Shown: piece by piece, positions 1-63,635 of the stretch
Layout: every line of letters begins with the position of its first letter
Position numbering within the stretch: the stretch's first letter is position 1
Virus record (IMG/VR): IMGVR_UViG_3300048930_000155
Coordinates: 1-64,000 of that record
Length of the DNA stretch: 64,000 nt
From: an uncultured virus (IMG/VR IMGVR_UViG_3300048930_000155)
Taxonomy: Duplodnaviria > Heunggongvirae > Uroviricota > Caudoviricetes
Reading direction: 5' to 3' (one strand)
The notes under the pieces: model-generated
The model's database searches: none
Told to the model about the DNA's origin: nothing
The model's input: the letters and a program-made list of their open reading frames with translations, nothing else
Position numbers and translations under genes: made by a program

Positions 1-436
1 CGGCTAGGTGCCCTTTACTCGCCGCCCAGCGTAGAGCCTCGTCGCCACGGGCCCTAACGTCAGCGCCCTTTTCGACGAGGAACTGCACTACGGCTAGGTG
101 ACCGTAGCGCGCCGCCTCGCATAGCGCATAGTCGTCCCAGGCCCTAACGTCAGCGCTCTTTTCGATTAGGTACTGCACTACGGCTAGGTGCCCGTTATAC
201 GCCGCCTCGCGTAGCGCCTCGTCGTCTTGGGCCCTAACGTCAGCGCCCTTTTCGATAAGGAGCTGCACTACGTCTAGGTGACCGTTATACGCCGCCCTGC
301 GTAGCGCATAGTCGTTATAGGCCCTAACGTTAGCGCCCTTTTCGATTAGGTACTGCACTACGGCTAGGTGACCGTAGCGACTAAACGTGATTAAGTCGTT
401 GTTAAGGACGGTTTTATAACCTATGATTGTCGCCAT
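1..436 (-). CDS. Ankyrin-repeat protein (locus A), 3' end runs off the window; absent from the ORF track
   Basis: ATG at 436 overlaps the upstream stop (TAATG); reads MATIIGYKTVLNNDLITFSRYGHLAVVQYLIEKGANVRAYNDYALRRAAYNGHL...; 90-bp tandem units. Confidence 0.92.
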   Translation of the reverse strand, partial: MATIIGYKTVLNNDLITFSRYGHLAVVQYLIEKGANVRAYNDYALRRAAYNGHLDVVQLLIEKGADVRAQDDEALREAAYNGHLAVVQYLIEKSADVRAWDDYALCEAARYGHLAVVQFLVEKGADVRARGDEALRWAASKGHLA

Positions 437-660
437 TAGCTTTCCGCTCCTGTAATAATAGTTATCATAAACTTATTATAATTTATGCTAATCTTACCGG
501 CTTGCATCCCTACTATATAGGATGTGTTTTTAAGCTTGTCGATAACCTGAGAGGACTTAAGTGCGGTCTCAATGCGGCCCTCGCCAGCAGAAGTATCGAC
601 TACTCTACCCTGTGAATGTAAAAATGTCCTTAAAAAATATTCAGTATAATCAGCGCTCAT
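436..660 (-). CDS. Hypothetical protein
   Basis: ORF in a tight operon; start moved to MSADY at 660 (ATGA overlap with the upstream stop). Confidence 0.7.
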   Translation of the reverse strand: MSADYTEYFLRTFLHSQGRVVDTSAGEGRIETALKSSQVIDKLKNTSYIVGMQAGKISINYNKFMITIITGAES

Positions 661-884
661 GATAGCCCCTTTTCGGCCACTCGCCAAGCCGTCTCAATCT
701 CGTCATATATCTTCAACCACTCCTCATCGGACGGCCTATGGTCCCTCATACTCGGATTAATCATTAGTACGTAGTTTATTACCTTATCCGCGTTCACTAA
801 TTTCCCCGACCAAAATTGCTCGTCTACGTAAGTAGAGAATTCATTAGTATCCAAATATTGTTGTACGATCTCTAGCAATCTCAT
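657..884 (-). CDS. Hypothetical protein
   Basis: GGAG SD; overlapping stop/start with both neighbours. Confidence 0.75.
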   Translation of the reverse strand: MRLLEIVQQYLDTNEFSTYVDEQFWSGKLVNADKVINYVLMINPSMRDHRPSDEEWLKIYDEIETAWRVAEKGLS

Positions 885-1048
885 TTCCTAGTTTCTCCTA
901 AATATTCTATGACAGTTACTACCCCAGCCATTATGAGTACCGCCGGGAGAAGAATGATCGACATGGCTTTTATGAGGAACTCTAAATCCGAAAATACCGC
1001 AAGCATAATAAGCATGATTACGGCCCCTATAACCAGTACTTGTAGCAT
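881..1048 (-). CDS. Small membrane protein
   Basis: Two hydrophobic stretches; start MLQVL lies behind an AAGAAAGG SD in the ankyrin gene tail. Confidence 0.7.
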   Translation of the reverse strand: MLQVLVIGAVIMLIMLAVFSDLEFLIKAMSIILLPAVLIMAGVVTVIEYLGETRK

Positions 1049-1049
1049 A

Positions 1050-1427
1050 TCATTGACCTTTCTTAATAACATTCTTTAAATATTGTACTACGGCTAGGTG
1101 ACCGTAGCGCGCCGCCTCGCGTAGCGCCGCGTCGTCCTGGGCCCTAACGTTAGCGCCCTTTTCGATTAGGTACTGCACTACGGCTAGGTGCCCGTTAATC
1201 GCCGCCCAGCGTAGCGCCTCGTCGTCACGGGCCCTAACGTCAGCGCCCTTTTCGATTAGGTACTGCACTACGGCTAGGTGCCCACTCTCCGCCGCCTCGC
1301 ATAGCGCATAGTCGCCCCAGGCCCTAACGTTAGCGCCCTTTTCGATTAGGTACTGCACTATGGCTAGGTGCCCGAGGCGGCTAAACGTGATTAAGTCGTT
1401 GTTAAGATCGTTTTGAGTATTTTGCAT
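1050..1427 (-). CDS. Ankyrin-repeat protein (locus B)
   Basis: 30-aa repeats GHLAVVQYLIEKGAxVRAxxDxALxxAAxx; 3 variable segments. Confidence 0.95.
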   Translation of the reverse strand: MQNTQNDLNNDLITFSRLGHLAIVQYLIEKGANVRAWGDYALCEAAESGHLAVVQYLIEKGADVRARDDEALRWAAINGHLAVVQYLIEKGANVRAQDDAALREAARYGHLAVVQYLKNVIKKGQ

Positions 1428-1568
1428 TTAAATAAACTCCACTATAATACGCCTTTTCTTAAGCGCTCCTTTATACTTACTAATATTCTTAGCGTTTACA
1501 AGGGTTAGCCTTTTATTAATCTTTAATCTGATCCCTGGGCACTCTCTTGGAACTACGTACTTAATCAT
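1428..1568 (-). CDS. Small basic hypothetical protein (46 aa; not in the ORF track)
   Basis: MIKYVVPRECPGIRLK...IVEFI*; fills the gap exactly with an ATGA overlap and an abutting TAA-ATG. Confidence 0.65.
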   Translation of the reverse strand: MIKYVVPRECPGIRLKINKRLTLVNAKNISKYKGALKKRRIIVEFI

Positions 1569-1807
1569 ACCTTAATAGTCTCTAGCTTAATTATAGGTCG
1601 CTCATCTACCGTAAATCCAGTTATCCTAACTACGTGAATGTCTTTTTTAGACAGGAGCACGTTATTGTGCTTAGACTTAGCCAGGCACTGCTCTATTGAT
1701 TCGTAAGCCTGTGTGCTATCCTTCCATGTACCAGGCTTTGACACTAACTGGTACTGCGTGGGAGTAACATACTCTAGCGCAGTTATGTATATATTACGAT
1801 TTTTCAT
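1565..1807 (-). CDS. Hypothetical protein
   Basis: ORF with SD supplied by the ankyrin C tail. Confidence 0.7.
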   Translation of the reverse strand: MKNRNIYITALEYVTPTQYQLVSKPGTWKDSTQAYESIEQCLAKSKHNNVLLSKKDIHVVRITGFTVDERPIIKLETIKV

Positions 1808-1812
1808 ATATT

Positions 1813-2193
1813 CTAACCTTTCTTAATAACATTCTTTAAATATTGTACTACGGCTAGGTGACCGTTCTCCGCCGCCCAGCGTAGCGCCGCGTCGTTACGG
1901 GCCCGTACGTCGGCTCCCTTTTCGACGAGGTACTGCACTACGTCTAGGTGGCCCTTCTCCGCCGCGTAGCGTAGCGCCGCGTCGTCACGGGCCCTAACGT
2001 TAGCGCCCTTTTCGATTAGGTACTGCACTACGTCTAGGTGCCCATTCTCCGCCGCCTCGCATAGCGCATAGTCGTCCCAGGCCCTAACGTCAGCGCTCTT
2101 TTCGATTAGGTACTGCACTACGGCTAGGTGACCGTAGCGACTAAACGTGATTAAGTCGTTGTTAAGATCGTTTTGACACTCTACTGTTAACAT
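1813..2193 (-). CDS. Ankyrin-repeat protein (locus C)
   Basis: Same 90-bp scaffold; 3 variable segments. Confidence 0.95.
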   Translation of the reverse strand: MLTVECQNDLNNDLITFSRYGHLAVVQYLIEKSADVRAWDDYALCEAAENGHLDVVQYLIEKGANVRARDDAALRYAAEKGHLDVVQYLVEKGADVRARNDAALRWAAENGHLAVVQYLKNVIKKG

Positions 2194-2857
2194 AAAAATA
2201 TTCGCTATCCTTTATCTTTAAAAATTTAGCGCCCGTGAACTCTTTTTTAAGCATAGTACCTACTGTATCGCTCACTTCAATGTAGCCCAGATTCTCCATT
2301 TCAGAGGATCTAACATCTACTTTAAACATTTTCAACACGGCTAATACCTTTTTGATATAATCAGGGTGGATAGAACCATTCCCTTTGCCTTTAATTTGAT
2401 TCATTTGATCTTGTTGAAGTTCAAAAGTGGCATGAGGCATGTTAAGGGGGTCTCGTAAAGAAAGGACCTTAGTATTAGTCCTGTTAGCGTAACTCCCCGC
2501 ACAGTGTCGCATAAGATAGCCTTCTCTTTTAAAGGCATTTTCGCCGACTAACTCTACTAATTTAAATCCGTCGCTAAATCTCTTAAGTACTTTAATGTCG
2601 GCCTCAGATTCTTGGATATGCTCGCCCTTTTTTATGAGGGTCTTATTCCACTTGTCCGTTGCAGCTTTAGCCTGCGCGTAGCTCATTTTCTTAAGTCTAG
2701 TAGGCGCTTTGTCTGACGCTAAAAAGTCCAGAATGTGCTCTATTTCGACCTGATTCTCGGTGCCCTTTTTGATAGTGGCGGCCAGCACAGTCCTAATCCA
2801 ATTCTGAACTTCGGCGCTAGGGTTATTATAGGTCAAGTATTTAGTTAACTGTTGCAT
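2162..2857 (-). CDS. PcfJ-like domain protein
   Basis: Motifs EGYLMRHCAGSY, LSLRD...PHATFE, QIKGKGN. Confidence 0.75.
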   Translation of the reverse strand: MQQLTKYLTYNNPSAEVQNWIRTVLAATIKKGTENQVEIEHILDFLASDKAPTRLKKMSYAQAKAATDKWNKTLIKKGEHIQESEADIKVLKRFSDGFKLVELVGENAFKREGYLMRHCAGSYANRTNTKVLSLRDPLNMPHATFELQQDQMNQIKGKGNGSIHPDYIKKVLAVLKMFKVDVRSSEMENLGYIEVSDTVGTMLKKEFTGAKFLKIKDSEYFYVNSRVSKRS

Positions 2858-2870
2858 TTTATATTCTCCT

Positions 2871-3134
2871 TTAAATAAGAATGTTTTTATTTAGCACATG
2901 CTGCGGGATATACCACAGAATCTGCTCTTCTGAGAGAAGCACTTTACGTGTAGAAAGGCCAGAGTATGATCTAAGCTCTACTTTACCGCCTAATATTTCT
3001 AGTTCGGGGGGATCGCCGGGCAAGTAATTACCGTTGTATACAAGATCAGGTTTACCTCCATAGAATCTAAAGTCTACTTCGAACTCTCTACCGTTATATA
3101 AAAAGCTAGAAGTCATTACACCGGAACGCATCAT
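2871..3134 (-). CDS. Hypothetical protein
   Basis: ORF in operon; PGDPPELEI motif. Confidence 0.7.
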   Translation of the reverse strand: MMRSGVMTSSFLYNGREFEVDFRFYGGKPDLVYNGNYLPGDPPELEILGGKVELRSYSGLSTRKVLLSEEQILWYIPQHVLNKNILI

Positions 3135-3355
3135 GCCTCCTTATTTAAATTTATAGACTTAACCCAAGTTACCGGATCTGTCTTGATAGACACTACGCCA
3201 GTATCTGCTAGATTTTGTAAAAAGTCCACTATTTTTTGTCTAATTTTATGCGTACCTAGTCGTCGTTCTAGTTTAGAGACTAGTTCTACATATAGCGTGC
3301 GTCCTCCTAGTTGAGTTAATATGTCTATAATCATAGATTTAGTTAGCACTTGCAT
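3131..3355 (-). CDS. Hypothetical protein, possibly a small winged-helix fold
   Basis: Start MQVLTK behind AAGGAG in the ankyrin D tail; the fold guess is weak. Confidence 0.65.
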   Translation of the reverse strand: MQVLTKSMIIDILTQLGGRTLYVELVSKLERRLGTHKIRQKIVDFLQNLADTGVVSIKTDPVTWVKSINLNKEA

Positions 3356-3917
3356 TTTTAGACTCCTTAATAACATTCTCTAAATATTGTACTACGGCGA
3401 GGTGACCGTTACCCGCCGCCCAGCGTAGCGCCTCGTCGTCCCAGGCCCTAACGTCGGCGCCCTTTTCGATGAGGTACTGCACTACGGCTAGGTGCCCGTT
3501 ATTCGCCGCCCAGCTTAGCGCCTCGTCGTTACGGGCCCGTACGTCGGCTCCCTTTTCGACGAGGTACTGCACTACGTCTAGGTGCCCGTTATTCGCCGCC
3601 CAGCGTAGCGCCGCGTCGTTACGGGCCCGTACGTCGGCTCCCTTTTCGACGAGGTACTGCACTACGTCTAGGTGGCCCTTCTCCGCCGCGTAGCGTAGCG
3701 CCTCGTCGTTACGGGCCCGTACGTCGGCTCCCTTTTCGACGAGGTACTGCACTACGTCTAGGTGGCCCTTCTCCGCCGCGTAGCGTAGCGCCAAGTCGTC
3801 ACGGGCCCTAACGTCAGCGCCCTTTTCGATGAGGTACTGCACTACGGCTAGGTGCCCGAGGCGGCTAAAGGTAACCAAGTCGCGGTTTAGATCATCTAGT
3901 AATTCTACTGTTAACAT
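3339..3917 (-). CDS. Ankyrin-repeat protein (locus D)
   Basis: 5 variable segments on the shared scaffold. Confidence 0.95.
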   Translation of the reverse strand: MLTVELLDDLNRDLVTFSRLGHLAVVQYLIEKGADVRARDDLALRYAAEKGHLDVVQYLVEKGADVRARNDEALRYAAEKGHLDVVQYLVEKGADVRARNDAALRWAANNGHLDVVQYLVEKGADVRARNDEALSWAANNGHLAVVQYLIEKGADVRAWDDEALRWAAGNGHLAVVQYLENVIKESKNASAN

Positions 3918-4135
3918 ATATGCGCGCTCTCTGATTTAATTTCTATAACCCTTAGGGATAGGCGTACTAAGTTATAAGGTCGCCTAAGTTTAGCAGATAG
4001 GTAGTCAGTTAGTACGTCCTCCGCGGCTAGGGCCGCCATAAGTCTCGGGTCTTCGAAATAATCGTCGCTCTTCAGGGATACCGGCACACTATATAACTTA
4101 CCTGCATATTCTATACCCACTAAATAATCTAACAT
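3911..4135 (-). CDS. Hypothetical protein
   Basis: ORF with G-rich SD, in operon. Confidence 0.7.
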   Translation of the reverse strand: MLDYLVGIEYAGKLYSVPVSLKSDDYFEDPRLMAALAAEDVLTDYLSAKLRRPYNLVRLSLRVIEIKSESAHIC

Positions 4136-4144
4136 GTCCGCCCC

Positions 4145-4621
4145 TTACTCTAGCTCACAGCTAGTCGTTGTTTTAAAGTTACACCCTCTACCATCGGTAG
4201 TAACATAGTTAGTGTTGTCTAGCAGCATAACCAATCTAATTAGACTAGCGTTACCTGGCGAAAAGACCGCATATAATTTCTCATTCACACAGAATAGAAC
4301 CTCTGGATGAGTTGCTGTATTCGCCGTATCTAGACACGGGACCACTGCACTCATGCTAGTATTTTGTCCCGGGTCTCCTTGAGGCCCAGTCTCGCCCTGT
4401 GGCCCAGTTTCTCCTTGAGGACCACCTAAACCCGGCGCCCCTTGCTCCCCATCTTCACCATGTTCAATTAAGTTATCAGGATGGCCCGGGCACCTTATGA
4501 TCACTCCTCGTGAATCTGGTATAGACCGGCATCCTACGGGCTCTGGTGCGCTCACTGATAGTGGATATTCGGTACCGCATCCAGCCAGTGCAGCTAAAAC
4601 AAAAACTCTATTTAGTCCCAT
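4145..4621 (-). CDS. Lipoprotein with short collagen-like Gly-X-Y repeat
   Basis: Lipobox LAGC after a hydrophobic N-terminus; GEQGAPGLGGPQGETGPQGETGPQGDPG; Cys-containing C-terminal domain. Confidence 0.8.
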   Translation of the reverse strand: MGLNRVFVLAALAGCGTEYPLSVSAPEPVGCRSIPDSRGVIIRCPGHPDNLIEHGEDGEQGAPGLGGPQGETGPQGETGPQGDPGQNTSMSAVVPCLDTANTATHPEVLFCVNEKLYAVFSPGNASLIRLVMLLDNTNYVTTDGRGCNFKTTTSCELE

Positions 4622-4799
4622 AAGTCTCCTTAATTATTTTATATAAGTCTTCTAATGTAGGCGCGCTAGTTACATGCCTAAGCTCCGCGCCTGTTTTAGT
4701 GTCCTTTAGGTACAGCGCCCACCCCCAGTCTAGATGCCGTATAGCTAAACTATGTCTATCTAGTATCCTCTGGATAGTGCTAAATGACTCTATGTCCAT
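4608..4799 (-). CDS. Hypothetical protein
   Basis: ORF in operon with SD. Confidence 0.65.
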   Translation of the reverse strand: MDIESFSTIQRILDRHSLAIRHLDWGWALYLKDTKTGAELRHVTSAPTLEDLYKIIKETYGTK

Positions 4800-4801
4800 T
4801 T

Positions 4802-5407
4802 TTAAACACCCTCTCCAGCAGCGTCGGCTATGCTGGCAACAAAGCTGTCTGTCTTTAAAAGCTTATCTAACTGCGTTACTAACTCGAATATAGAGCTAAA
4901 TTCAATGTCTATACTCTTTAAATCGTCGTATTTACGGTGATATGGTGCATCCTTGACGCTAACCGTTAGCCGTATATTAAGTTCATTAGGTCCTGTCAAC
5001 ATAAGATCGGCCCCTATTAATGTCGTAGACTCTGAATCCTCTGCTCTATAATTATCAAAATCGTCTAACTGATCATCCGTCAATTCAGCATCTGCTGGTA
5101 TTTTACGCGCCTCCTTAAAGGCCTCTAAGTTGTATTTATAAAACTCATCTAGGGTCTTGTGTGCGTTTTCGAAGATACCTGACAGAGCGTACTCTGCGTG
5201 TCTGTTGTCTAGATAAGATATAGCCTCTAATCCGCCCTTGTTGTGACTATAAGGCATGAACCCGTCTCTGGATCTGCACTCTAATCGGTCTATTCTGTCG
5301 CGGCTAAAGCCTAGACCCTCTATTAAAAAGTCTCTCAACATTTGCTCTAAGCTATCGGCCTCGCTCGTACTCAACTCAGGCATATCCTCTATTTTAAATG
5401 CGTGCAT
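4802..5407 (-). CDS. Hypothetical acidic protein
   Basis: 201-aa ORF with AAGGA SD. Confidence 0.8.
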   Translation of the reverse strand: MHAFKIEDMPELSTSEADSLEQMLRDFLIEGLGFSRDRIDRLECRSRDGFMPYSHNKGGLEAISYLDNRHAEYALSGIFENAHKTLDEFYKYNLEAFKEARKIPADAELTDDQLDDFDNYRAEDSESTTLIGADLMLTGPNELNIRLTVSVKDAPYHRKYDDLKSIDIEFSSIFELVTQLDKLLKTDSFVASIADAAGEGV

Positions 5408-5953
5408 ACTGGCTTATCCTTTCTTTTGCTTGTTATGTTAGCCACTATATAGCACTATGCTGCTATAGTGTATTAAGTTTATATTAAATCTGCGTTAGGT
5501 CTATTTAAAGCTTTCTGCTTAACTATCAGTTACTTAAGTCTAGGCTAAACTCGCCACTTAAGCTCGTTTTGAATTTAGGGCCTCGACTGCGTAACCTTAA
5601 GCCTAAATTAAGTCTATTCAGCTCTAACTAAAATCAGCTACTTAGCAGAACGGGCCACTAATACGTCTATATAGAATAGATAATCATTATCCATAACATG
5701 TACACATATAAATAGACTGTGTGTAAAGGCTATAGTGAAGACTTAATCATTAGTATAGGGTGTTCTATAGGACATATAGCAAAGTACCGACTATAGGGCG
5801 TATAGAGCGTCTAATAGAGTCTTAAGTCTAGGTGAGTACAGGTGTACTATTCGTTAATCTATTCAAAGCTTTGGATTGAGAGTGAGCGATGAGGTGGAGG
5901 AGTGATGGTTATAGTCACACTCACACCCTCTTCTCCCCCATAAACTCAACTAC

Positions 5954-12706: not shown

Positions 12707-13219
12707 TCATTTGCCGATCTCCTCATTATACTTACTAACAGCAGTTCCGTCTAAGTATTTACCTGAATATTTCTGAGTAGATTCCGTAACTTTAAAGAAT
12801 ACTAACTGACTAAGTGACATGCCTCTGTAGATTTTTACTGGCTGCTGCACGGATATAGCCATAGTCCACTGGCCGCTGTAACCATTATCGCCAAGTCCGC
12901 CATCGCTAGTCACTGAGATGCCTAATCTAGCTGCACTAGAACGCCCATAGAGGATAGCTACTACTCCGTCAGTAGCCACTACCTCCTGGGACTTCACTAG
13001 GTATACCCTTCCTGGGTACAAGATATAAGGCTCTGCACCTATCTTTGTAACGTAAGTAGTTGGCTTAGCTTTAGGGTCTAAGATCGGATCGGAAAGCTCT
13101 GTAACCTCATCAGATATTGACAAGTTGTACGAGTTGGGCCCTAAATTATCCACATTAAAGCTAGATATTTTAATATTGCCGGAGCTAATGTTTTCCAGTA
13201 TCTCAGACGCAACTAGCAT
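12707..13219 (-). CDS. dcd: dCTP deaminase
   Basis: GPNSYNL, GRSSAARLG, GDNGYSG, QLVFF, YSGKY; start corrected to MLVASEI. Confidence 0.88.
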   Translation of the reverse strand: MLVASEILENISSGNIKISSFNVDNLGPNSYNLSISDEVTELSDPILDPKAKPTTYVTKIGAEPYILYPGRVYLVKSQEVVATDGVVAILYGRSSAARLGISVTSDGGLGDNGYSGQWTMAISVQQPVKIYRGMSLSQLVFFKVTESTQKYSGKYLDGTAVSKYNEEIGK

Positions 13220-13220
13220 T

Positions 13221-13523
13221 TTATTCCTCGCTCTTGGCAGCAGCAGCAGCAGCGGCCTTCGCAGCGTCGATAGCAGCATTACGAGCCTGCTCAGCTTCGA
13301 ATTCATCCATCTTTTCCAAGAGAAGCTTAATTCTTCGATCTTGCTCAGCCAGTGGCAGTTTAAGAATTCCTTTTACGAATCTCTTATGATTATTGACTAA
13401 TTCGTACTTAGTTTCTTTACTAACTAAGCTTTTAGGTTGAATTGTAATTAGCGGCTCGTCTTGCATGCCCAGGCGAGTAGCGATTTCACTAAGAATAGCT
13501 TTATTTTTTGAATTCTTTTTCAT
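13221..13523 (-). CDS. Hypothetical protein
   Basis: ORF in operon. Confidence 0.7.
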   Translation of the reverse strand: MKKNSKNKAILSEIATRLGMQDEPLITIQPKSLVSKETKYELVNNHKRFVKGILKLPLAEQDRRIKLLLEKMDEFEAEQARNAAIDAAKAAAAAAAKSEE

Positions 13524-16420: not shown

Positions 16421-16706
16421 AGAGATCAGGCATTTCCAAGAGATAGCTGAGGTGCAATTAGAGCGCCTTAGAGCTATTTCTAGAGATCGTTTACTAACAT
16501 TTGAAGAAACTAAGATCTTTGATTTACTGACTAAAAACCTTCTTCTAAGCGAGAAAGCCTCTGGAGATATAGAAGGTCAGTCAGAAAAGGTAGAGGCCGT
16601 ATCTACTACGGAACTTATTCAAATAGCGCAGGCTGCGCAGGAGTTCTTTGAAGTTAAGAACGAAGTCAAGGAAGACTTAGATGTCAAGAAAACGCCCTCC
16701 AACTAA
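16377..16706 (+). CDS. Hypothetical protein, possible terminase small subunit
   Basis: Immediately upstream of and overlapping terL; function inferred from position only. Confidence 0.5.
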   Translation: MKKKLVKPKQELVIEEIRHFQEIAEVQLERLRAISRDRLLTFEETKIFDLLTKNLLLSEKASGDIEGQSEKVEAVSTTELIQIAQAAQEFFEVKNEVKEDLDVKKTPSN

Positions 16707-27439: not shown

Positions 27440-27617
27440 GCCATAACAAATAGTAATAGTAAAGGATATGCGCTTAGGCTACGTCTAGGCGCGTAACTCT
27501 ATGGACCCAGGATACTTTACTGCTTCTGGCATCCCGTTACGCCGAGACAAGGCTTATCTCAGTTCCTTTTTATTAAACCAACCAATAACTAAAATTAAAT
27601 AAAAGGAAAATAATAAA

Positions 27618-30768: not shown

Positions 30769-30793
30769 ATAATTTTAAGTAATTAGCGATACT

Positions 30794-33159: not shown

Positions 33160-33272
33160 AGCCCCGTTTATTTAGTCGGCTATTATACCTTAAATTTAGT
33201 CTACTTACGCGCACTTAACCGCGCATAACAAATCTTATTAGCTAGGGATATAATCTTAAAAGAGGTCTTTTA

Positions 33273-33743: not shown

Positions 33744-33748
33744 CAATT

Positions 33749-56037: not shown

Positions 56038-56332
56038 GCTTATTAGTCTTCCTATATGTACACTCGGTATTACTGCATAATACCAAAGTTCTAGTACCTA
56101 AGTCAACGTGCTTTAGTTTATTCGCACACTTAGGACACTTAGGTTCGGAAGAGTATTGCATATCATGATATGTGATATCGTCTAGAACGGTAGACGCCAT
56201 ATCTACTGCTTTTTGTAGTTCTTTATCTGAGCGGGCTAGCTGCTTACGGAGTTGTCTATTCTCGGCCTCTAGAGATCTAATAACTCCGCGTAAGTGTTCT
56301 AGCTCGCTACGAGTTTTAGGTCGCTTGCCCAT
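56015..56332 (-). CDS. Coiled-coil plus Zn-ribbon protein
   Basis: CPKC...CSNTEC. Confidence 0.7.
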   Translation of the reverse strand: MGKRPKTRSELEHLRGVIRSLEAENRQLRKQLARSDKELQKAVDMASTVLDDITYHDMQYSSEPKCPKCANKLKHVDLGTRTLVLCSNTECTYRKTNKHGQTKTN

Positions 56333-56966
56333 CGGTTAATTTAGAAATAGCGGCTATTACATCTGCTTCAAATTGAAGTAGAGTTGAATTGTTTATGATT
56401 GTAATATCTACAGCCTTAGGTTCGAATTGTTCAGAAGCGTGCGAGTCGGAATTTACTAGCCCTGGGCGTTTTATCATCATTAGCTTACCGCCCAGCTTGT
56501 TTACAATATAGTCGGCCTCATTCTGAAAGCGCACGTCGTGGATTGCGTATTTACCGTCGAACTGTATTTGGGAAGCTATGGCCTTTAGCCAATAGTCTTG
56601 GTCAACGCAATCTCGGACTAGTTCAGAGCCTAACACTTGAAGTAACTGGCGTGGAGTAGACGTGTTTTTAGGGCCGTTATAAAGCCCCACAGCCTCTTCA
56701 ATTACAGAGGGGTGTATTTGCATATACCGATCACTTAGCGCCCAAAGGTAAGCCTTTAAAGCAGTATTAGAGAGGTTTACAGGTACATTAGCTGTTTCCT
56801 TTGTCGCGGGATCGTGGAGTATGTCTAAGCTAATGTCGAATACGTCAGCCGCAGCTTGCTTTATGGCGTCCGCAAAGGCCAAAGGTTTATAGCCCTTATT
56901 AGTGAGCAGTCTAGCCGCCGTAGTTTTACCTGAGCCTTTTTTTCCGATTAAACCTATAATAGTCAT
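56316..56966 (-). CDS. Deoxynucleoside monophosphate kinase
   Basis: GKKGSGKT, FADAIK, TPRQLLQ.LG.E, DVRFQNE, HASE. Confidence 0.92.
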   Translation of the reverse strand: MTIIGLIGKKGSGKTTAARLLTNKGYKPLAFADAIKQAAADVFDISLDILHDPATKETANVPVNLSNTALKAYLWALSDRYMQIHPSVIEEAVGLYNGPKNTSTPRQLLQVLGSELVRDCVDQDYWLKAIASQIQFDGKYAIHDVRFQNEADYIVNKLGGKLMMIKRPGLVNSDSHASEQFEPKAVDITIINNSTLLQFEADVIAAISKLTDGQAT

Positions 56967-57354: not shown

Positions 57355-58662
57355 CTAACCACGCCACTCGCCTTTAATAACGTTAATTAATTGCCTAGAG
57401 CCATTCTCATACACTAGGCACATAGTATGCATCCACGAACTTGGACCTTTATTATAATTAAGCTTAAGGTAGGAACTGGTACCTACTACCCAAGCGCCTC
57501 GCTGAATTTCTGGGGAATGCGTATGCCCGCTTACTGAAAGTAAGTAGGCCTTTTCTAGGGATATAGTAGACCCTCTAGCGCCATTAGATCCTAAGTGACC
57601 GTGCATGCCGCACTCTATCTGTTTCTTAGTAATCTTAAAGGATTCCTCTGAGCTGAGAAATTTAGTCTTCTTTAGCCTCTGGTACTTAGCCACCCCGTAT
57701 TCGAGAGGGTCGCTACCCCTAGCTTTAGCTAAAGCTAGCTCCAGACCGAGCACGTGATTTTGCGAGTCCTCTAAATAATTACCTGCCTCTAACCATCTAT
57801 CCAAAAATTCATCGTGATTACTCTTAACTACTACGAGTTTTTTCTTAGGTAATTTCTCTAACTCAGCCAGCTCGATAGCAGTATTATGTAACTCAGAGGC
57901 CAAGCTATTCTGGGAGCCTAGTAATGCCTTCATAAGAAGCTTATGCTCTATATGATGGTTTACAGAAATACCGTCAAATAAATCGTGCATAAAGAGATAA
58001 TCAGGCTTAAACCTGTGCATAATCTCTTTGACTATGCGTTTAACTTTAGGATCGGTGTATCCGGTGTGCCAGTCCCCAGGAATTAAAGCTGCCACATTAG
58101 CCTCGAGTACTTTACCATCAGGCGTATAAGTTTTAGCTAAGTCTATGAAACTACCGTCTCTACTAGCCTGTACTTGTCTAAAATGATATAGCGATGATCC
58201 CTTTACCTCTACAATTATAGCTCCGATTACGTGATCTAAATTTGCGATTAAAGATCTTTTAGAGCGTTTTTTGTGAGGCCGCGTTACCGCTCCAGGAGTC
58301 ATTAGTACTCTAGGAAGTTCGTTGCTAGGAGATGCCACGGACTTTAATCTTTGCTTAGGGGACGAGTATATTACGCTAGTGTCGATTCCAGATAATCGTT
58401 CTAACCCTGATATAGGATCTGGCTGTTCAGCTCCTACGGGGATAGTAGACAGCATTAATTTTGAGTTTAGCGACAAGTCCTCTGTTACTACAGTACCGTA
58501 GGTCTTAAGCTTTGGATCTAGCGTGTCCTTTTTAGCCAGCGGAGGCGTGGGCAGGATAAGGAGCTTTGCCTTATTTCTAGCACAGTAATTTTTAATAGCG
58601 GATAAAAATCCATCATGAGCTGCGCAGCCCGGCACCGCCGACGCAATTACGTATCGCTTCAT
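57355..58662 (-). CDS. Calcineurin-like metallophosphoesterase
   Basis: GDWH, HDLFDG, SNHD, HGH, GHTH. Confidence 0.82.
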   Translation of the reverse strand: MKRYVIASAVPGCAAHDGFLSAIKNYCARNKAKLLILPTPPLAKKDTLDPKLKTYGTVVTEDLSLNSKLMLSTIPVGAEQPDPISGLERLSGIDTSVIYSSPKQRLKSVASPSNELPRVLMTPGAVTRPHKKRSKRSLIANLDHVIGAIIVEVKGSSLYHFRQVQASRDGSFIDLAKTYTPDGKVLEANVAALIPGDWHTGYTDPKVKRIVKEIMHRFKPDYLFMHDLFDGISVNHHIEHKLLMKALLGSQNSLASELHNTAIELAELEKLPKKKLVVVKSNHDEFLDRWLEAGNYLEDSQNHVLGLELALAKARGSDPLEYGVAKYQRLKKTKFLSSEESFKITKKQIECGMHGHLGSNGARGSTISLEKAYLLSVSGHTHSPEIQRGAWVVGTSSYLKLNYNKGPSSWMHTMCLVYENGSRQLINVIKGEWRG

Positions 58663-59094: not shown

Positions 59095-59778
59095 TTATTC
59101 GCCTGTAAGGAGTTCTGCGGTAAAATTTGCCGCAGCCTGACTAGTTCCATTTAGACATACGTTAAAGCCGCATTGATAATTACCGTCCCTAATATGAGTT
59201 ACCGGACCATTTTTATTGCTGAGTATAGACGGACTCGCGACCACATAAAAACCAGGTATACCAAACTCGTAACATGCAGGAAATGCGTTACAACTTTGTG
59301 ACAAGTCTAGCCTTAGATTACCTGCAGCGGTTACGATTGTGGTACCACTTTTTAATAAACTAGATATAAGCTCGGCTTCTTTAGGAATAAAGTAAGGTCC
59401 CGCAAGACTCAGATTAATAATATGCGGCTTTAGAGTTTTAGCGTAATCTAAAGCTCTTAGGTAACTATCTGAGGCGGATACCTGAGCCCCACCAGGAAAC
59501 TCCTTCGTATGGTAGAATTTTAGAATAATCATACAGTGTGTCTTAGGATTAAGGCCCTTAGCTATTAGCCCGGCTACGTTAGTACCGTGCCCGTGATAAT
59601 CCTCTAGCTTTGTCTTAGTGAAATCTGCATGACCAGACGAGCATAAGTATGGCAATACTTGCGACGTTTCCGGCATCCCAGAATCAATAATAACTACTTT
59701 CTTACGTGTTTCAGCTAATACAGTTACTGAGATTAGGACAACTAGAAGCACTGTTAGATCTCTAAAATACTGTATCAT
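59095..59778 (-). CDS. Secreted minimal subtilisin-like (S8) serine protease
   Basis: Signal peptide; VIIDSG (Asp), HGHGTNVAG (His), AAGN, NGTSQA (Ser). Confidence 0.88.
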   Translation of the reverse strand: MIQYFRDLTVLLVVLISVTVLAETRKKVVIIDSGMPETSQVLPYLCSSGHADFTKTKLEDYHGHGTNVAGLIAKGLNPKTHCMIILKFYHTKEFPGGAQVSASDSYLRALDYAKTLKPHIINLSLAGPYFIPKEAELISSLLKSGTTIVTAAGNLRLDLSQSCNAFPACYEFGIPGFYVVASPSILSNKNGPVTHIRDGNYQCGFNVCLNGTSQAAANFTAELLTGE

Positions 59779-59781
59779 GAT

Positions 59782-59982
59782 TTAATTCTCCCCGATAACA
59801 TTCTTTAAATACTGTACTACGGCTAGGTGCCCGTTATTCGCCGCCCAGCGTAGCGCCGCATCGCCATCGGCCCTAACGTTAGCGCCCTTTTCGATTAGGT
59901 ACTGCACTACGGCTAGGTGACCGTAGCGACTAAACGTGATTAAGTCGTTGTTAAGATCGTTTTGACACTCTACTGTTAACAT
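59782..59982 (-). CDS. Ankyrin-repeat protein (locus E, shortest)
   Basis: First ~95 nt identical to locus C; one variable segment. Confidence 0.9.
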   Translation of the reverse strand: MLTVECQNDLNNDLITFSRYGHLAVVQYLIEKGANVRADGDAALRWAANNGHLAVVQYLKNVIGEN

Positions 59983-60014: not shown

Positions 60015-60299
60015 CTAGTATAGCGGTACACTAGCATCAATGTCGTCGGGCGATACCGATCTTATCGCAACCTCTGCGCTGCGAGTCTTACCGCAAATCG
60101 CGGTGTAATCCTGCTCCCCTATTTTAGTGAAGATTTTAAGACACGGGCTTTTTTTATACAGCTGTCGGCAACGTAACTGCGCTCTACTTAACTGCCGCAT
60201 ATCAAATTGATTAATTGGTATAAAAGTTTTATTTATAATCTCAGTAGCGGGACACGCAGTAAAGGACGCCATAAACATCAAATAAGCGTACATAGTCAC
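60015..60299 (-). CDS. Small Cys-rich exported protein
   Basis: Hydrophobic N-terminus, four Cys. Confidence 0.6.
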   Translation of the reverse strand: MTMYAYLMFMASFTACPATEIINKTFIPINQFDMRQLSRAQLRCRQLYKKSPCLKIFTKIGEQDYTAICGKTRSAEVAIRSVSPDDIDASVPLY

Positions 60300-61213
60300 T
60301 CCTCAACGTCTATCTTTACGTTGCCCCAGGAATCTTTATTATCTTCTTTGTACTGCTTAAGCGCTGCAGGATCGTCCGGTATAATAGCGTTAGAAGTAAT
60401 TAAGAAAGGGCCCTCATTGGATACCCCATTAATGTGGTTCTTCTCAACAGCCAGCTTGGCTGCTATCCCGAAAGAAACGTCTCGTCCGTCCTTTACGGCC
60501 TTAAGCTGACGTGTCTTACGCACTTTAATAACTAAGCTAGACGAATAGTAAATCCCATCCCCGCCGTAAGGAACGTCTGTAGTAGGCCCTCCAGGAAACG
60601 CTGGCGGCTGCTTATACGAATGGTTAATGAATACCAGGCCTGCAAAATGCGGGCTATTTACTTTACGCGTATCGTTAATCCTATGACTAACTACCCGCAT
60701 CTGCTCGCGAATTACTTTTGACGTTTTCATCATAGCGCCGCCAACCTCAGTATTACCGTCTTTAGCAATGCGTACAGAATCTCTACTAATGGTATTTCCG
60801 ATAGAGTCCACTATAAATAAAATATCTTTAGGTATGTCGCCCTTGCTTTGTGCAGATAGGAACTTATGAATCTCATCAAAAATCTCTTCGATATACGTTA
60901 CGTCAACAGATAGGACTGCATCCACGTCGACGCCCATAGTCGCGGCCCGCTCCGGCATAAACTTACCTTCTGTGATTATGAATATGGGCAGCACGTTTTG
61001 CTGCAGCGCTTTTGCCGCCAAAGTAAGAGCTAGGGTAGTCTTTCCGCCGTTACTAGGTCCGTAGATTTGAGTTATATGGCCTAAAGGTAGACCAGGTAAT
61101 CCGGATACTTCTTTTAGGGCATCGTCCCATTGGATATAATTCTCTTTCTTGTACGGAACGCTTGCCGCCTGAAGCGACTTTTTAAATGCTTGTAGGTCAA
61201 ATTTCTTAGTCAT
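60296..61213 (-). CDS. recA: RecA/UvsX-like recombinase
   Basis: GLPLGHITQIYGPSNGGKTT, IVDSIG, VFINH, YGG.G..YSSSL, EKNH. Confidence 0.88.
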   Translation of the reverse strand: MTKKFDLQAFKKSLQAASVPYKKENYIQWDDALKEVSGLPGLPLGHITQIYGPSNGGKTTLALTLAAKALQQNVLPIFIITEGKFMPERAATMGVDVDAVLSVDVTYIEEIFDEIHKFLSAQSKGDIPKDILFIVDSIGNTISRDSVRIAKDGNTEVGGAMMKTSKVIREQMRVVSHRINDTRKVNSPHFAGLVFINHSYKQPPAFPGGPTTDVPYGGDGIYYSSSLVIKVRKTRQLKAVKDGRDVSFGIAAKLAVEKNHINGVSNEGPFLITSNAIIPDDPAALKQYKEDNKDSWGNVKIDVEE

Positions 61214-61433
61214 GGATGCTTAGCCCCTCACTTAAAAATATATCATGCAACTTCTTTCGCATTTCTGCTACGGCTTTAGTATAATCTTCCGAATATTCCT
61301 CTCCGCCGTACTTCACAATACTGCGAAGTTCTTGATCATACTCCTGCACTGCGTGCTTATAGGCCATCCCCTTTTGGGCACAATCTAGTTCGTATTGCTC
61401 CCCGGGCACTTCAAATTCTAGTATAACTTTCAT
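61206..61433 (-). CDS. Small phage hypothetical protein
   Basis: MKVILEFEVP...DQELRSIVKY. Confidence 0.7.
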   Translation of the reverse strand: MKVILEFEVPGEQYELDCAQKGMAYKHAVQEYDQELRSIVKYGGEEYSEDYTKAVAEMRKKLHDIFLSEGLSIHD

Positions 61434-61538
61434 GATATTACTCTCCTCACATGATCAATATACATTAGTACCTTAGTATATGCAAGTGTCAAAAGTATAG
61501 CTATTTACAACGTGCATTATTTGAGTTAGTGTATAAGC

Positions 61539-62684
61539 ATGACTAATAAGTTATCCCATAGTTCAGTATCTACTTATACTACTTGTGCATATAAGTACAA
61601 ACTTCGGTATATAGAAAAGCTGTACCCCAAAAATCCTAGTGCGGCGCTACTATTCGGCACGGCAATAGACAAGGCACTCACGGATATGCTAAATGATCAT
61701 GCGGCAAATAACATAGACTGGCTAGGACAGACGTATAAGACCACGTTTATCAATAATTGGCGCCGAGGCGAAGTTAATAAAAAGATCGTAGATTTATATG
61801 ATAACCCTGATGTAGTCTACGCAGCGTCAGATATGGACTGGAAGTTAATGTCTAATAAAGACTTTGATGCGCTACTTACTGCGGCCACGTCCCTATATCC
61901 AGGAGTAGGGCCATTACCTAAAGGGGATCACGCCGATCTAGTGGACCTATTTAAGGCTATAGGTAAGCAAAAAGAAGCGGACGGCTGGAATAACCTTAAC
62001 GACGATCAGCGCAAGTACTATAACTACGCTAACTGGCTATGCTTAAGTATTAAAGGTGAGCTGATGATAAAAGCTTATCTAGAGAAGATTATACCTAGAA
62101 TTAAAAGAGTGATAAGCGCTCAGCGGGCAATCGATATTCAAAGCGACAGTGGAGACTCTATTACGGGATTTATAGATTTAATTGCCATATGGGAAGACGG
62201 AAGAACTATAGTATTTGATAACAAAACCTCGGCTAGGGAGTACGAAGCCGACGCTGTTCTAAAGAGCCCGCAACTAGCTATATATTCGCACGCACTCGAG
62301 AATGAGCTTAAGTCTAGGACAGCAGGGTTCATAGTATTACGAAAACTTATTAATAAGAACGCTAGTAAGAAGTGCAGCGTGTGTAATATGGACGGGGAGG
62401 GCAACAGAGCTAGAACCTGTAATAACGAAATAGGCGGTAAGCGGTGTTCAGGAGAGTGGGAAGAAGTGCTGAGGCCGGCAGCGGATATCCAAGTACTTAT
62501 ATCAGATATCCCGGAACAAACGGAGGCCATAACTATCCAGAACTTCGAAGAAGTTAACCATGCTATAAAGGCCCAGGTATTCCCGAGAAACATGTCAGCC
62601 TGTAAGAATGGAAGCCTAATATGCCCGTATTACTCAGTATGCTGGCATAATAATAATAAAGATGTAGTTAAGATTGAAAAGTAA
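61539..62684 (+). CDS. PD-(D/E)XK (Cas4/RecB-like) exonuclease
   Basis: LSHS..STY..C..KY, GFIDL, FDNKT, QLAIY, C-terminal C...CPY..VC. Confidence 0.85.
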   Translation: MTNKLSHSSVSTYTTCAYKYKLRYIEKLYPKNPSAALLFGTAIDKALTDMLNDHAANNIDWLGQTYKTTFINNWRRGEVNKKIVDLYDNPDVVYAASDMDWKLMSNKDFDALLTAATSLYPGVGPLPKGDHADLVDLFKAIGKQKEADGWNNLNDDQRKYYNYANWLCLSIKGELMIKAYLEKIIPRIKRVISAQRAIDIQSDSGDSITGFIDLIAIWEDGRTIVFDNKTSAREYEADAVLKSPQLAIYSHALENELKSRTAGFIVLRKLINKNASKKCSVCNMDGEGNRARTCNNEIGGKRCSGEWEEVLRPAADIQVLISDIPEQTEAITIQNFEEVNHAIKAQVFPRNMSACKNGSLICPYYSVCWHNNNKDVVKIEK

Positions 62685-62734
62685 GTGTGGACATAGTTTC
62701 GCGCTTTTGCTAGATTATAACATATAGGAGACAT

Positions 62735-62971
62735 ATGGCAAAAATAGGAAGATCAATTAGAATGAAACAAGAAGACAAAGGACCTTACTATGTGCTTGGA
62801 ATTGCAGTGACTCATGATGGTTTTGAGTTACGTAAGTTAAAGATGCACGGGGACGAAGTTATGCACGTAGAGACGGTAGCCACGTCCACAGATAGGGCCG
62901 AAATCATATCACAACTGGAAATAAATACAGTATATTATGCCTATGACTTTAACCAACAACAAAGTAAATAG
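62735..62971 (+). CDS. Hypothetical protein
   Basis: AGGAG SD. Confidence 0.7.
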   Translation: MAKIGRSIRMKQEDKGPYYVLGIAVTHDGFELRKLKMHGDEVMHVETVATSTDRAEIISQLEINTVYYAYDFNQQQSK

Positions 62972-63635
62972 CGGTACCGCACATTTTCAAACAGAGCTTA
63001 GCGACGCTTTAATCAAGTTTAGCCGCCACGGGCACCTAGCCGTAGTGCAGTACCTAATCGAAAAGGGCGCTAACGTTAGGGCCCGTGGCGACGCGGCGCT
63101 ACGCAGGGCGGCGGAGAATGGACACCTAGACATCGTGCAGTACCTAATCGAAAAGGGCGCTGACGTTAGGGCCGATGATGTCGAGGCGCTACACCGGGCG
63201 GCTACTAACGGGCACCTAGCCGTAGTGCAGTACCTCATCGAAAAGGGTGCTAACGTTAGGGCCTATAACGACGCGGCGCTACACTGGGCGGCTCGTAACG
63301 GTCACTTAGACGTAGTACAGCTCCTCATCGAAAAGGGCGCTAAAGTTAGGGCCTGTGACGACTCGGCGCTACGCTGGTCGGCGGATAACGGTCACCTAGC
63401 CGTAGTGCAGTACCTAATCGAAAAGGGCGCTGACGTTAGGGCCCGTAACGACGAGGCGCTGCGTAACGCGGCGGAGAATGGTCACCTAGCCGTAGTGCAG
63501 TACCTAATCGAAAAGGGCGCTAACGTTAGGGCCCGTGACGACGAGGCGCTACGCGAGGCGGCGCATAATGGACACAAAGACGTCGTACAATATTTAGAAA
63601 ACGTTATTAAGGAGCTTAAGAAGTGCAAGTGCTAA
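62937..63635 (+). CDS. Ankyrin-repeat protein (locus F, 6 variable segments)
   Basis: Same scaffold, opposite orientation to loci A-E. Confidence 0.95.
   Translation: MPMTLTNNKVNSGTAHFQTELSDALIKFSRHGHLAVVQYLIEKGANVRARGDAALRRAAENGHLDIVQYLIEKGADVRADDVEALHRAATNGHLAVVQYLIEKGANVRAYNDAALHWAARNGHLDVVQLLIEKGAKVRACDDSALRWSADNGHLAVVQYLIEKGADVRARNDEALRNAAENGHLAVVQYLIEKGANVRARDDEALREAAHNGHKDVVQYLENVIKELKKCKC

Follow-up and report, generated by a model that had tools for sequence, protein, structure and literature searches.

A capped ankyrin-repeat gene family with a near-uniform scaffold and a diversified surface in an uncultivated tailed phage

We found that an uncultivated tailed phage encodes eight ankyrin genes, comprising 45 repeat units, in which the framework of the unit is nearly uniform and variation is concentrated at seven positions. 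The explanation that we consider probable is that these genes form a capped ankyrin family whose members exchange sequence, diversify one face and engage distinct host targets. We have considerable confidence in the account of origin and evolution, according to which a foreign unit was amplified, undergoes ongoing block exchange and has diversified at its surface. The functional proposal is more tentative, with a chance that we place slightly short of even: the products may be cytoplasmic proteins, each binding a different host protein or variant, in takeover of the cell or counter-defence.

The window (the whole stretch of 64,000 nucleotides that was analyzed) is part of an 81.7-kb circular genome (81,739-bp record) with terminase, portal, head and tail proteins, DNA polymerase and primase-helicase, in agreement with the original prediction of a tailed phage. 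With its own replication genes and no integrase or resolvase found in the genome, the phage is virulent-looking in its gene content. The features are as follows.

2..436, minus strand: gene A, N-terminal part, N-cap and units 1-4 (ORF; Pfam Ank_4, 1.3e-32)
1050..1427, minus strand: gene B, 125 aa, 4 units, 3 variable segments (ORF, Pfam)
1813..2193, minus strand: gene C, 126 aa, 4 units, mosaic (ORF, Pfam, exact-tract matches)
2162..2857, minus strand: PcfJ-like gene between C and D (Pfam PcfJ, 2.7e-7)
3339..3917, minus strand: gene D, 192 aa, 6 units, the modelled protein (ORF, Pfam, AlphaFold2)
59782..59982, minus strand: gene E, 66 aa, minimal, with an N-cap unit, one variable segment and a C-cap (ORF, Pfam)
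60296..61213, minus strand: UvsX/RecA-like recombinase between E and F (phrog_97, 2.6e-31)
61539..62684, plus strand: exonuclease between E and F (phrog_1218, 6.2e-17; phrog_69, 1.2e-12)
62937..63635, plus strand: gene F, 232 aa, 7 units, longer N-terminus; the sole ankyrin copy on the plus strand (ORF, Pfam)
77780-78352: gene H, outside the window
78605-79258: gene G, outside the window

The six ankyrin genes that had been read from the window all exist, and Pfam Ank, Ank_2 and Ank_4 scored above their curated cut-offs in 6/6 of them, with Ank_4 E-values from 1.8e-57 (F) to 1.8e-7 (E). Tandem Repeats Finder reported period-90 arrays in five of the six (82-91% matches, 0-1% indels), gene E being below its detectable length. 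The original prediction was correct for these six genes but underestimated the family, to which the whole genome adds G, H and the remainder of A. Full-length gene A crosses the contig junction into genome positions 81271-81738 and encodes 277 aa with nine units and eight variable segments; the junction reads the same in both records of the phage. Each of the eight ORFs is intact and retains conserved caps, and the stand-alone products, of 66-277 aa, contain no further domain. One leftward block accommodates six of the copies, with unrelated small genes lying between them; the other two are located outside it. This block of small, mostly unannotated genes holds A-D and the PcfJ-like gene, with G and H across the junction, and 25 of the 30 neighbouring proteins scanned have no Pfam family. 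The phrog matches confirmed the recombinase and exonuclease that had been placed between E and F.

The unit is 90 bp long and encodes 30 residues, compared with 33 in the canonical ankyrin repeat; this 30-residue subtype, common to Mimiviridae and many bacteria, was not part of the original prediction. Identity is 89% (protein) and 91% (DNA) in the framework but 31% at the seven positions that vary (1, 2, 4, 7, 8, 11 and 12), and the mean identity between units is 75.5%. As had been claimed, variation is concentrated at set positions: among 29 internal units, 59% of the pairwise nucleotide differences fall within 21 of the 90 nt. The framework, claimed to be almost invariant even at most synonymous sites, is not strictly so, as its synonymous pS is 0.18. 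The 22 variable segments visible in the window (A 4, B 3, C 3, D 5, E 1, F 6) were all found and all differ, and 36/37 are distinct genome-wide. R, N, E, D, Y and W, residues typical of interfaces, predominate at these positions. Position-specific codons recur across many units, and the codon-allele combinations quoted originally are all present. The markers said to link loci were likewise recovered: KSAD in A2 and C0 (AGC at codon 25), and a GGA-GCC-GAC-GTA-CGG framework haplotype in C2 and D1-D3. Additionally, five tandem genes of like design on an unrelated metagenome contig vary most at positions 1, 2, 4, 7, 11 and 12.

An AlphaFold2 model of the gene D protein (mean pLDDT 88.3) has two helices per unit, and its best Foldseek matches in the PDB are ankyrin proteins and DARPins (TM 0.78-0.82, identity 39-41%), consistent with the DARPin-like scaffold that had been proposed. 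In the model, helix 1 spans unit positions 4-12; the variable positions 4, 7, 8, 11 and 12, spaced as i, i+3, i+4, i+7, i+8, occupy one helical face, and positions 1-2 lie in the preceding loop. The seven variable positions are thus predicted to form one surface, as the original prediction had expected, and the model supports their location where ankyrins and DARPins bind. The phage proteins resemble DARPins in having an N-cap, a number of modules of identical framework and a C-cap. Under the DARPin position numbering that we take to apply, positions 1, 11 and 12 of the unit match sites at which DARPin modules differ from one another. However, the phage unit has a beta-turn three residues shorter, where the turn positions varied in DARPin libraries are removed or compressed, and it varies two helix-1 positions aligned to the H and L of TPLHL, both of which DARPins keep fixed.

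Block exchange among the paralogs is well supported by their sequences. In gene C, exact matches of at least 25 nt to other paralogs (E, A, D, F and B) tile 367/378 nt. C and D have 39 differing sites in 215 nt, followed by 109 nt without a difference; C and E have no differences over the first 96 nt of E and then 35 in 102 nt; and C and A share an identical 81-nt tract that is two units out of register. The runs of C identical to D, E and A each gave p<=0.0005 in phase-preserving shuffles. Similarity between paralogs begins at the start codon and ends at the stop codon, and the flanks are unrelated. The original claim of recombination therefore stands for blocks, whereas the reshuffling of single codon alleles within the 36-nt variable segment is weakly supported: PHI gave p=0.0005 at the nucleotide level, a value inflated by within-codon linkage, and when whole codons were treated as characters, p was 0.03 for neighbouring codons and a nonsignificant 0.06-0.36 for wider spans. 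Allele reuse inside a segment could partly be recurrent mutation. We speculate that the phage's own UvsX/RecA-like recombinase might catalyze the exchange between paralogs.

Diversifying selection is the probable cause of the variability, as suggested by substitution counts. Minimum-event counting gave 40 nonsynonymous and 8 synonymous events at variable codons and 21 and 20, respectively, in the framework (Fisher p=0.0014). Had the variable codons changed at the synonymous rate of the framework, 18.8 nonsynonymous events would be expected there, approximately half of those observed (Poisson p=1.4e-5). Pairwise dN at variable codons is 0.65 versus a framework dS of 0.20, in counts that are not independent. 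Composition also sets the family apart, a feature beyond the original prediction: its GC3 is 0.64 versus 0.40 for the other genes (0.639 versus the 0.404 that the codon preferences of the phage itself would predict), a comparison that in effect concerns one 30-codon unit copied many times.

We considered whether the mosaics, or some of the paralogs, are short-read chimeras of a repeat family or a mixed population, which is very unlikely. The genome is a short-read metagenome assembly whose contig ends fall in a 167-nt exact internal duplication in gene A, a block with a copy number beyond the resolution of such an assembly; the apparent terminal repeats of 71 and 127 bp in the two records are assembly overlaps inside it, and paralogs share exact tracts of 75-109 nt. 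However, the second record is 100% identical over 81,485 bp, and despite their different end overlaps, both records close to the same 81,668-bp circle, although they may share the same reads and hence are not independent. Moreover, shared exact tracts outside the repeat in A are all shorter than 127 nt, and every gene sits in a unique, unrelated flank within a tight operon, with frame and caps intact. It is hardly credible that a dedicated mutator, DGR-like or other, writes the variable codons. Variation is sharply localized to set codons, and synonymous minimum events per site are higher there than in the framework (2.14 versus 1.09), but most of these synonymous variants are one nonsynonymous step from the common codon, and the recurring position-specific codons indicate descent and exchange rather than fresh mutation. 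Differences from the consensus hit all four bases (G 100, T 48, A 46, C 38), not adenines alone, and, in line with the original prediction, RVT_1 gave 0 hits for reverse transcriptase at E<=1 in the complete genome, with positive controls. Because of this lack of reverse transcriptase and the changes at all four bases, we favor ordinary duplication and gene conversion with probable diversifying selection.

Two other accounts concern what the variation is for. The family could be a neutral by-product, a young captured repeat with a constrained scaffold, an unconstrained surface and no distinct targets. Within the variable codons, omega is 1.08 (binomial p=0.51, with only approximately 3.7 synonymous sites), a neutral proportion; the unameliorated codon usage suggests a recent origin; and any ankyrin repeat tolerates substitution at surface positions. 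We nevertheless regard neutrality as rather improbable, given the twofold excess of nonsynonymous change over the framework synonymous rate, the distinct segments and interface-typical residues of eight intact, capped ORFs, and the approximately 4.2 kb of ankyrin genes kept by an 82-kb phage. Alternatively, the proteins might target a eukaryote, the phage infecting a predatory, intracellular or grazed bacterium; they would be released by lysis or secreted by the host without an N-terminal signal peptide and would interfere with phagocytosis or signalling, as proposed for the 'Ankyphage' protein ANKp. The 30-residue subtype and C-cap resemble those of Mimiviridae, with a Moumouvirus protein at 59% identity, and the closest bacterial genomes include Micavibrio, Rickettsiella, Aquirickettsiella, Legionella, Babeliaceae and Wolbachia. 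Comparable ankyrin genes are very rare in sequenced phages (8/50,697 GenBank phage records); seven of these eight matching records are Wolbachia phage WO, and no other comparable phage genes were found there. Additionally, a phage ankyrin protein is reported to reduce phagocytosis (Jahn et al., 10.1101/608950). However, the same subtype occurs in many free-living bacteria, the genes occupy an early-type small-gene block rather than a moron-like position, and the lack of integrase and resolvase makes a lasting gain to a lysogen unlikely. By a simple hydropathy check, the N-termini are not hydrophobic (maximum Kyte-Doolittle 10-residue mean at most 1.42), in keeping with the original claim of no signal peptides, whereas two Ankyphage ANKs are reported to have signal peptides. 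No related phage carrying the ankyrin locus was found, the sole other record being identical and the protein clusters of the phage singletons; a relative occurs in one run only, labelled sludge, a source that is not clearly host-associated. We consider a eukaryotic target unlikely, though it deserves some weight.

Overall, we favor a capped family with distinct host targets and suggest a putative route to it. The phage most likely acquired the 90-bp unit from a source of higher GC content, and the unit would then have been amplified, both as repeats inside genes and as entire ORFs inserted at new sites. The copies would keep swapping blocks, at times out of register, via gene conversion or homologous recombination, which would keep the scaffold near-uniform and alter repeat number. 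The seven exposed helix-1 and loop positions would gather and retain amino-acid changes, probably under diversifying selection. The products, made from the early-type leftward gene block, would act during infection, presumably in the cytoplasm, although a type III, IV or VI system of the host might conceivably secrete them. Their targets may be host defence proteins, as the original prediction had supposed.

The closest parallels come from other repeat families. In Podospora, the ANK/TPR/WD repeats of nwd/hnwd genes are reported to show allelic repeat-number polymorphism and positive selection across isolates (Dyrka et al. 2014, PMC4986451). As that source describes them, fungal NLR repeats share with the phage units a near-fixed framework, reshuffling within and between paralogs, variable repeat number, and a few hypervariable positions on the concave ankyrin face (inner helices and hairpin/loop). 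In contrast, they belong to eukaryotic immune receptors with NACHT/NB-ARC and effector fusions and 33-residue ANK units, and the identity between phage units falls below the 85% criterion given there (PMC4986451). Bodo saltans virus is reported to carry 148 ankyrin copies in a 'genomic accordion' (Deeg et al. 2018, PMC5871332); like the phage family, those of large DNA viruses are described as recently duplicated and variable in repeat number, and are read as arms-race anti-host factors (PMC5871332). However, such viruses have eukaryotic hosts, megabase genomes and peripheral tandem arrays, often with a virus-specific N-terminal domain, unlike the 82-kb tailed phage with its eight copies. Among tailed phages, ankyrin-repeat genes are reported for 'Ankyphage' ANKp and for 418 IMG/VR phage contigs (Jahn et al., bioRxiv 10.1101/608950), and Wolbachia phage WO carries such genes as well. 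In the part of that account used here, Ankyphage nevertheless differs in having one ANK gene per contig and a tested protein that acts on eukaryotic cells, and no family of paralogs combining a constant scaffold with a hypervariable face is described there (10.1101/608950); phage WO is temperate and infects an intracellular bacterium. The mechanism that we propose is not new; it matches accounts of how NLR repeats in fungi and ankyrin arrays in giant viruses evolve. A fixed scaffold with varied contact residues is known in giant viruses and fungal immune receptors but is rare in phages.

Overall, the original prediction of a family of ankyrin genes built on one shared scaffold was confirmed and extended by our analysis. 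All six of the predicted open reading frames were present in the window, and Pfam Ank, Ank_2 and Ank_4 matched above the curated cut-off in every one of the six proteins (Ank 132 bits against a cut-off of 21.1 for protein D; Ank_4 190 bits for protein F). Period-90 tandem arrays were detected in five of the six genes. In the complete genome, nine matching places corresponded to eight ankyrin genes.

Ankyrin genes of the phage (A to F in window coordinates, the others in genome coordinates)
2..436 (-), gene A, which crosses the contig junction
1050..1427 (-), gene B
1813..2193 (-), gene C
3339..3917 (-), gene D
59782..59982 (-), gene E
62937..63635 (+), gene F
78605-79258, gene G, beyond the window
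77780-78352, gene H, beyond the window
81274-81738, C-terminal part of gene A, the ninth matching place

Six copies lie on the same strand in one block of about 8 kb over the junction (77.8-81.7 kb plus 0-3.9 kb), interleaved with unrelated genes, and E and F sit apart. The ankyrin genes are packed tightly against their neighbors, and the similarity between paralogs runs from start codon to stop codon and stops there, the flanks of the copies being unrelated. Cutting in register yielded 45 units, comprising 8 N-caps, 29 internal units and 8 C-caps. In each of the eight genes, conserved caps at both ends enclose 0-7 internal units. Judged on hydropathy only, none of the eight proteins appears to carry an N-terminal signal peptide (Kyte-Doolittle 10-residue maximum mean of 0.47-1.42 within the first 35 residues).

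The repeat unit follows the pattern x-x-D-x-A-L-x-x-A-A-x-x and continues with an 18-residue framework, giving 30 residues in all. Canonical ankyrin units have 33 residues, a TPLH motif and a full beta-hairpin. The phage unit departs from them: when aligned with ankyrin-1 and DARPins by HMMER, it has a 3-residue gap in the beta-turn, and T-P-L-H is replaced by x-A-L-R/C/H. A modal spacing of 30 was found in 61 of the 94 homologues with measurable spacing, and the homologues include a Moumouvirus repeat protein (59% identity) and others named for Burkholderia and Achromobacter. The unit is a known short ankyrin subtype that is common among the nearest homologues. An AlphaFold2 model of protein D, computed from the single sequence (mean pLDDT of 88.3), contained two helices per unit, and its top Foldseek matches in the PDB were ankyrin proteins and DARPins (TM 0.78-0.82, 39-41% identity); the model is thus an ankyrin solenoid of stacked helix-turn-helix repeats.

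The variation within this unit is strongly concentrated. Per-codon counts revealed high amino acid entropy at positions 1, 2, 4, 7, 8, 11 and 12, and the framework varied, to a lesser degree and with two or a few states, only at positions 16, 22 and 27. Among the 29 internal units, framework identity reaches 89% at the protein level and 91% at the DNA level, compared with 31% at the seven variable positions, and 21 of the 90 nucleotides hold 59% of the pairwise nucleotide differences. The 22 variable segments, their example combinations and the linked markers reported from the window all proved correct. In the complete family, 36 of 37 variable segments are distinct, and the lone duplicate belongs to a duplicated block in gene A. 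In the model of protein D, helix 1 spans positions 4-12 and positions 1-2 form the preceding loop; the spacing of variable positions 4, 7, 8, 11 and 12 is therefore i, i+3, i+4, i+7 and i+8, which would fit a single helix face, as would the alignment to DARPin modules. The A-L and A-A pairs, which are buried, do not vary. The likeness to DARPins, which we use as a working analogy and not as a natural family, lies in the constant caps and the variable number of framework-identical modules. Positions 1, 11 and 12 align with residues that differ between DARPin modules; however, the phage unit has the 3-residue turn gap and varies at positions 7 and 8, which align with residues that DARPins hold fixed.

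Gene C bears marks of exchange between paralogs. Exact matches of at least 25 nt to E, A, D, F, D and B, in this order, cover 367 of its 378 nt. Between C and D, the first 215 nt hold 39 differences and the following 109 nt hold none; C and E match perfectly over 96 nt, after which 35 of 102 positions differ; and 81 identical nucleotides are common to C and A, two units out of register. The identical runs of the C-D, C-E and C-A pairs each beat 2,000 of 2,000 phase-preserving shuffles (p<=0.0005). Repeats have thus been exchanged both within and between paralogs, including a 167-nt two-unit duplication in A, and the sequence evidence for exchange between paralogs is strong. The free shuffling of single codons inside the variable segment is less secure. 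Incompatible pairs made up 108 of the 210 codon-character pairs, but the signal with distance is weak: the codon-level PHI test gave p=0.03 for adjacent codons and 0.06-0.36 over wider spans. A nucleotide-level PHI test gave p=0.0005; this value is inflated by linkage within codons, and we set it aside for the codon-level test. On the other side, a given residue at a given position nearly always has the same codon (16 of 16 position-1 arginines are CGT), which speaks for shared descent rather than repeated mutation. Of the proposal that recombination homogenizes the scaffold and reshuffles the binding residues, block exchange between paralogs stood, and the codon-by-codon shuffling was only weakly borne out.

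A diversity-generating retroelement was ruled out: the RVT_1 search found zero matches in the complete genome, the controls being positive, in agreement with the earlier claim that no reverse transcriptase is present, and the units differ at all four bases rather than specifically at adenines. The ankyrin family is not a programmed mutator. Diversifying selection is likely, although not proven. Pairwise dN at the seven variable codons is 0.65 compared with a framework dS of 0.20. The minimum numbers of nonsynonymous and synonymous events were 40 and 8 in the variable codons (7 codons) versus 21 and 20 in the framework (23 codons; Fisher p=0.0014), and the 40 nonsynonymous events exceed the 18.8 that the synonymous rate of the framework predicts (p=1.4e-5). 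Measured against framework dS, omega is approximately 2-3 by these pairwise and event counts. However, the ratio within the variable codons themselves is neutral (omega 1.08, p=0.51, on fewer than 4 synonymous sites), and several of their "synonymous" variants lie one nonsynonymous step from the common codon. The GC3 of the ankyrin family is 0.639; the value is 0.399 for 33 other genes, and the codon preferences of the phage itself predict 0.404. This excess suggests a fairly recent foreign origin, with the reservation that one unit dominates the count.

The assembly also bears on the repeat count. The window belongs to an 81,739-bp IMG/VR virus record whose annotated "direct terminal repeat" (window 1-71, genome 81669-81739) is 71 bp long and lies inside an ankyrin repeat of gene A. 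A second record of the same phage (81,795 bp) is its exact reverse complement over 81,485 bp and has an end overlap of 127 bp. The "terminal repeat" that marked the record as complete (71 bp, or 127 bp in the twin) is an assembly overlap. The two records yield one and the same circle of 81,668 bp and the same 277-aa gene A, and hence the circle is sound. Because the contig ends fall inside the 167-nt exact two-unit duplication within gene A, the copy number of this block is a lower bound only. The circle is consistent, yet the end call depends on repeat sequence.

A PHROG scan of 69 open reading frames found tailed-phage genes encoding terminase, portal, head, tail, DNA polymerase, primase-helicase and a RuvC-like resolvase. 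A separate search found no integrase or resolvase. No tRNA genes were found in the phage, and an Rfam search of the window returned zero matches, including none to a group I intron. A promoter and terminator consensus scan indicated leftward promoter-like sites near 9.2 kb and was otherwise uninformative. Among the 30 proteins neighboring the ankyrin genes, 25 have no Pfam family and one is PcfJ-like.

Other genes named in the text (window coordinates)
16681-18150, terminase large subunit (PHROG)
18165-20210, portal (PHROG)
60296-61213, UvsX-like recombinase (PHROG)
61539-62684, exonuclease (PHROG)
27832-28383, 28928-29605, 30899-32530 and 33749-34411, homing-endonuclease genes (GIY-YIG/HNH)

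Several other features of the genome were recorded in passing. The four homing-endonuclease genes interrupt the head-gene region (26414-34411), lying between open reading frames that look like pieces related to the capsid: 26414-27439 matches an open reading frame adjoining the portal gene of a relative, and 29752-30768 is similar to a major head protein PHROG. The capsid gene may be split or intron-invaded here. Beside the ankyrin genes, in an early-type block, 4145-4621 (-) encodes a small protein with a lipoprotein-like N-terminus (a hydrophobic stretch ending in cysteine), collagen-like G-x-y repeats, tail-fiber PHROG matches and a Pfam Collagen match below the cut-off. Directly downstream of gene E, 59095-59778 (-) encodes a subtilase-like protein (Peptidase_S8) with a hydrophobic N-terminal segment. 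The genes at 57355-58662 (-), 56316-56966 (-) and 12707-13306 (-) include one that strongly resembles phrog_1745 ("DNA transfer protein", E 1.7e-97) accompanied by a dNMP kinase and a dCTP deaminase, a set that may point to modified DNA bases in the phage. Outside the window, a 987-aa primase-helicase open reading frame at genome 66308-69271 (+) (4308-7271 of contig L010) has an N-terminus similar to primase PHROGs and a C-terminus similar to DnaB-like helicase PHROGs, and residues ~365-750 match PHROGs labeled terminase large subunit; this middle segment could be an inserted or fused NTPase-like piece.

Among sequenced phages, none is close to this one. Megablast and blastn of parts of the window against 50,697 phage records gave no match, and its DNA polymerase and terminase matched only distant phages (<=29% identity). 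Comparable ankyrin genes occurred in 8 of the 50,697 GenBank phage records, namely seven records of Wolbachia phage WO and one of a giant virus. A portal search in IMG/VR returned the identical twin, the only other record of the phage, and two fragments of 56-58% identity without the ankyrin region. An exact cluster look-up found three of nine proteins, all in singleton clusters on the twin contigs, and the remaining six were absent with the start codons as chosen. A metagenome scan with the PcfJ-like neighbor gene revealed no relative, and the portal search, the metagenome scans and the cluster look-up yielded no related phage with an ankyrin locus. The subtype itself recurs elsewhere: scans with the paralog alignment found 78 metagenome loci, and a bacterial genome scan found 43 loci (best 50% identity, Micavibrio), the 30-residue subtype occurring in both sets at 30-71% identity. 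None of the 78 metagenome loci has a non-ankyrin gene in common with the phage; the other matches there were dismissed as antisense open reading frames inside ankyrin repeats, apart from one weak 28% match in contig L103. A 22-kb viral contig (G002) has only its ankyrin gene in common with the phage. An unrelated metagenome contig, L038, carries, at 1-5685, five tandem small ankyrin genes of cap-repeat-cap form with a similar C-cap, approximately 71% identical to the phage proteins, and no non-ankyrin gene. Its most variable unit positions are 1, 2, 4, 7, 11 and 12, and the pattern thus belongs to this ankyrin subtype when arrayed.

Within-population evidence was sparse. Sequencing run X1 (labeled sludge) held 7% of the sampled words and yielded five contigs of low depth, 151-2,465 nt long, whose matches come in pieces of at most 208 nt and whose non-ankyrin parts are 95-99% identical. 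One has a diverged gene A N-cap, and in another a similar first unit follows an N-terminus that differs. At this low depth, they give hints of strain differences and nothing more. An X1 "joint" from 2045 to 397 was rejected as a deletion, since 26 framework bases match another paralog better.

Similar repeat families have been described elsewhere. Dyrka et al. 2014 (PMC4986451) describe WD, ANK and TPR repeats of fungal NLRs whose framework is conserved, which are exchanged within and between paralogs, and which are hypervariable at a few positions of the concave face. The phage family resembles these repeats in its exchange within and between paralogs. However, its internal units, at a mean amino acid identity of 75.5% (range 60-100%), fall below the internal repeat identity of at least 85% over at least 100 aa used in that text; the framework alone reaches 89%. 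Duplicated giant-virus ankyrin families are presumed anti-host factors in Deeg et al. 2018 (PMC5871332). In the "genomic accordion" of giant viruses, many copies stand in tandem and in one direction at the periphery of the genome. The phage has eight copies, six of them interleaved with unrelated genes on one strand within ~8 kb and E and F apart. Jahn et al. (bioRxiv 10.1101/608950) report ankyrin genes in 418 IMG/VR phage contigs and signal peptides in two Ankyphage ANKs, a secretion trait that, by hydropathy only, the eight phage proteins do not have. Within a limited literature collection, no listed title or abstract reports ankyrin paralogs that share a scaffold in a tailed phage, and those listed on ankyrins and anti- or counter-defense (15 of 397) contained no phage ankyrin counter-defense protein. 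The evolutionary reading originally proposed was largely right, as an instance of a process already known from fungal NLR repeats: the family is a clear and well-documented case of a known pattern of evolution, in a carrier that is unusual, and not a new mechanism. On the functional side of the proposal, the proteins are only candidate binders of host defense proteins.

A bolder reading is that the family generates diversity independently of reverse transcriptase, with the phage's own UvsX-type recombinase and exonuclease shuffling cassettes among the eight loci in each infection; the phage population would then hold a combinatorial set of intracellular binders keeping pace with variable defense proteins of the host. 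We regard this as improbable; if true, the family would be the phage counterpart of gene-conversion-based antigen and receptor variation in cellular organisms. The proteins that phages use for counter-defense and host takeover are, as a rule, small one-off inhibitors unrelated to one another. Keeping a family of binders with a common scaffold and differing recognition faces would be a different strategy, that of a modular, evolvable binder set resembling those of giant viruses and fungal immune receptors. Should targets be found, the family would be a source of 30-residue ankyrin scaffolds that are naturally stable and whose tolerated positions are known, and would provide a tractable bacterial system for how repeat proteins gain specificities by recombination.
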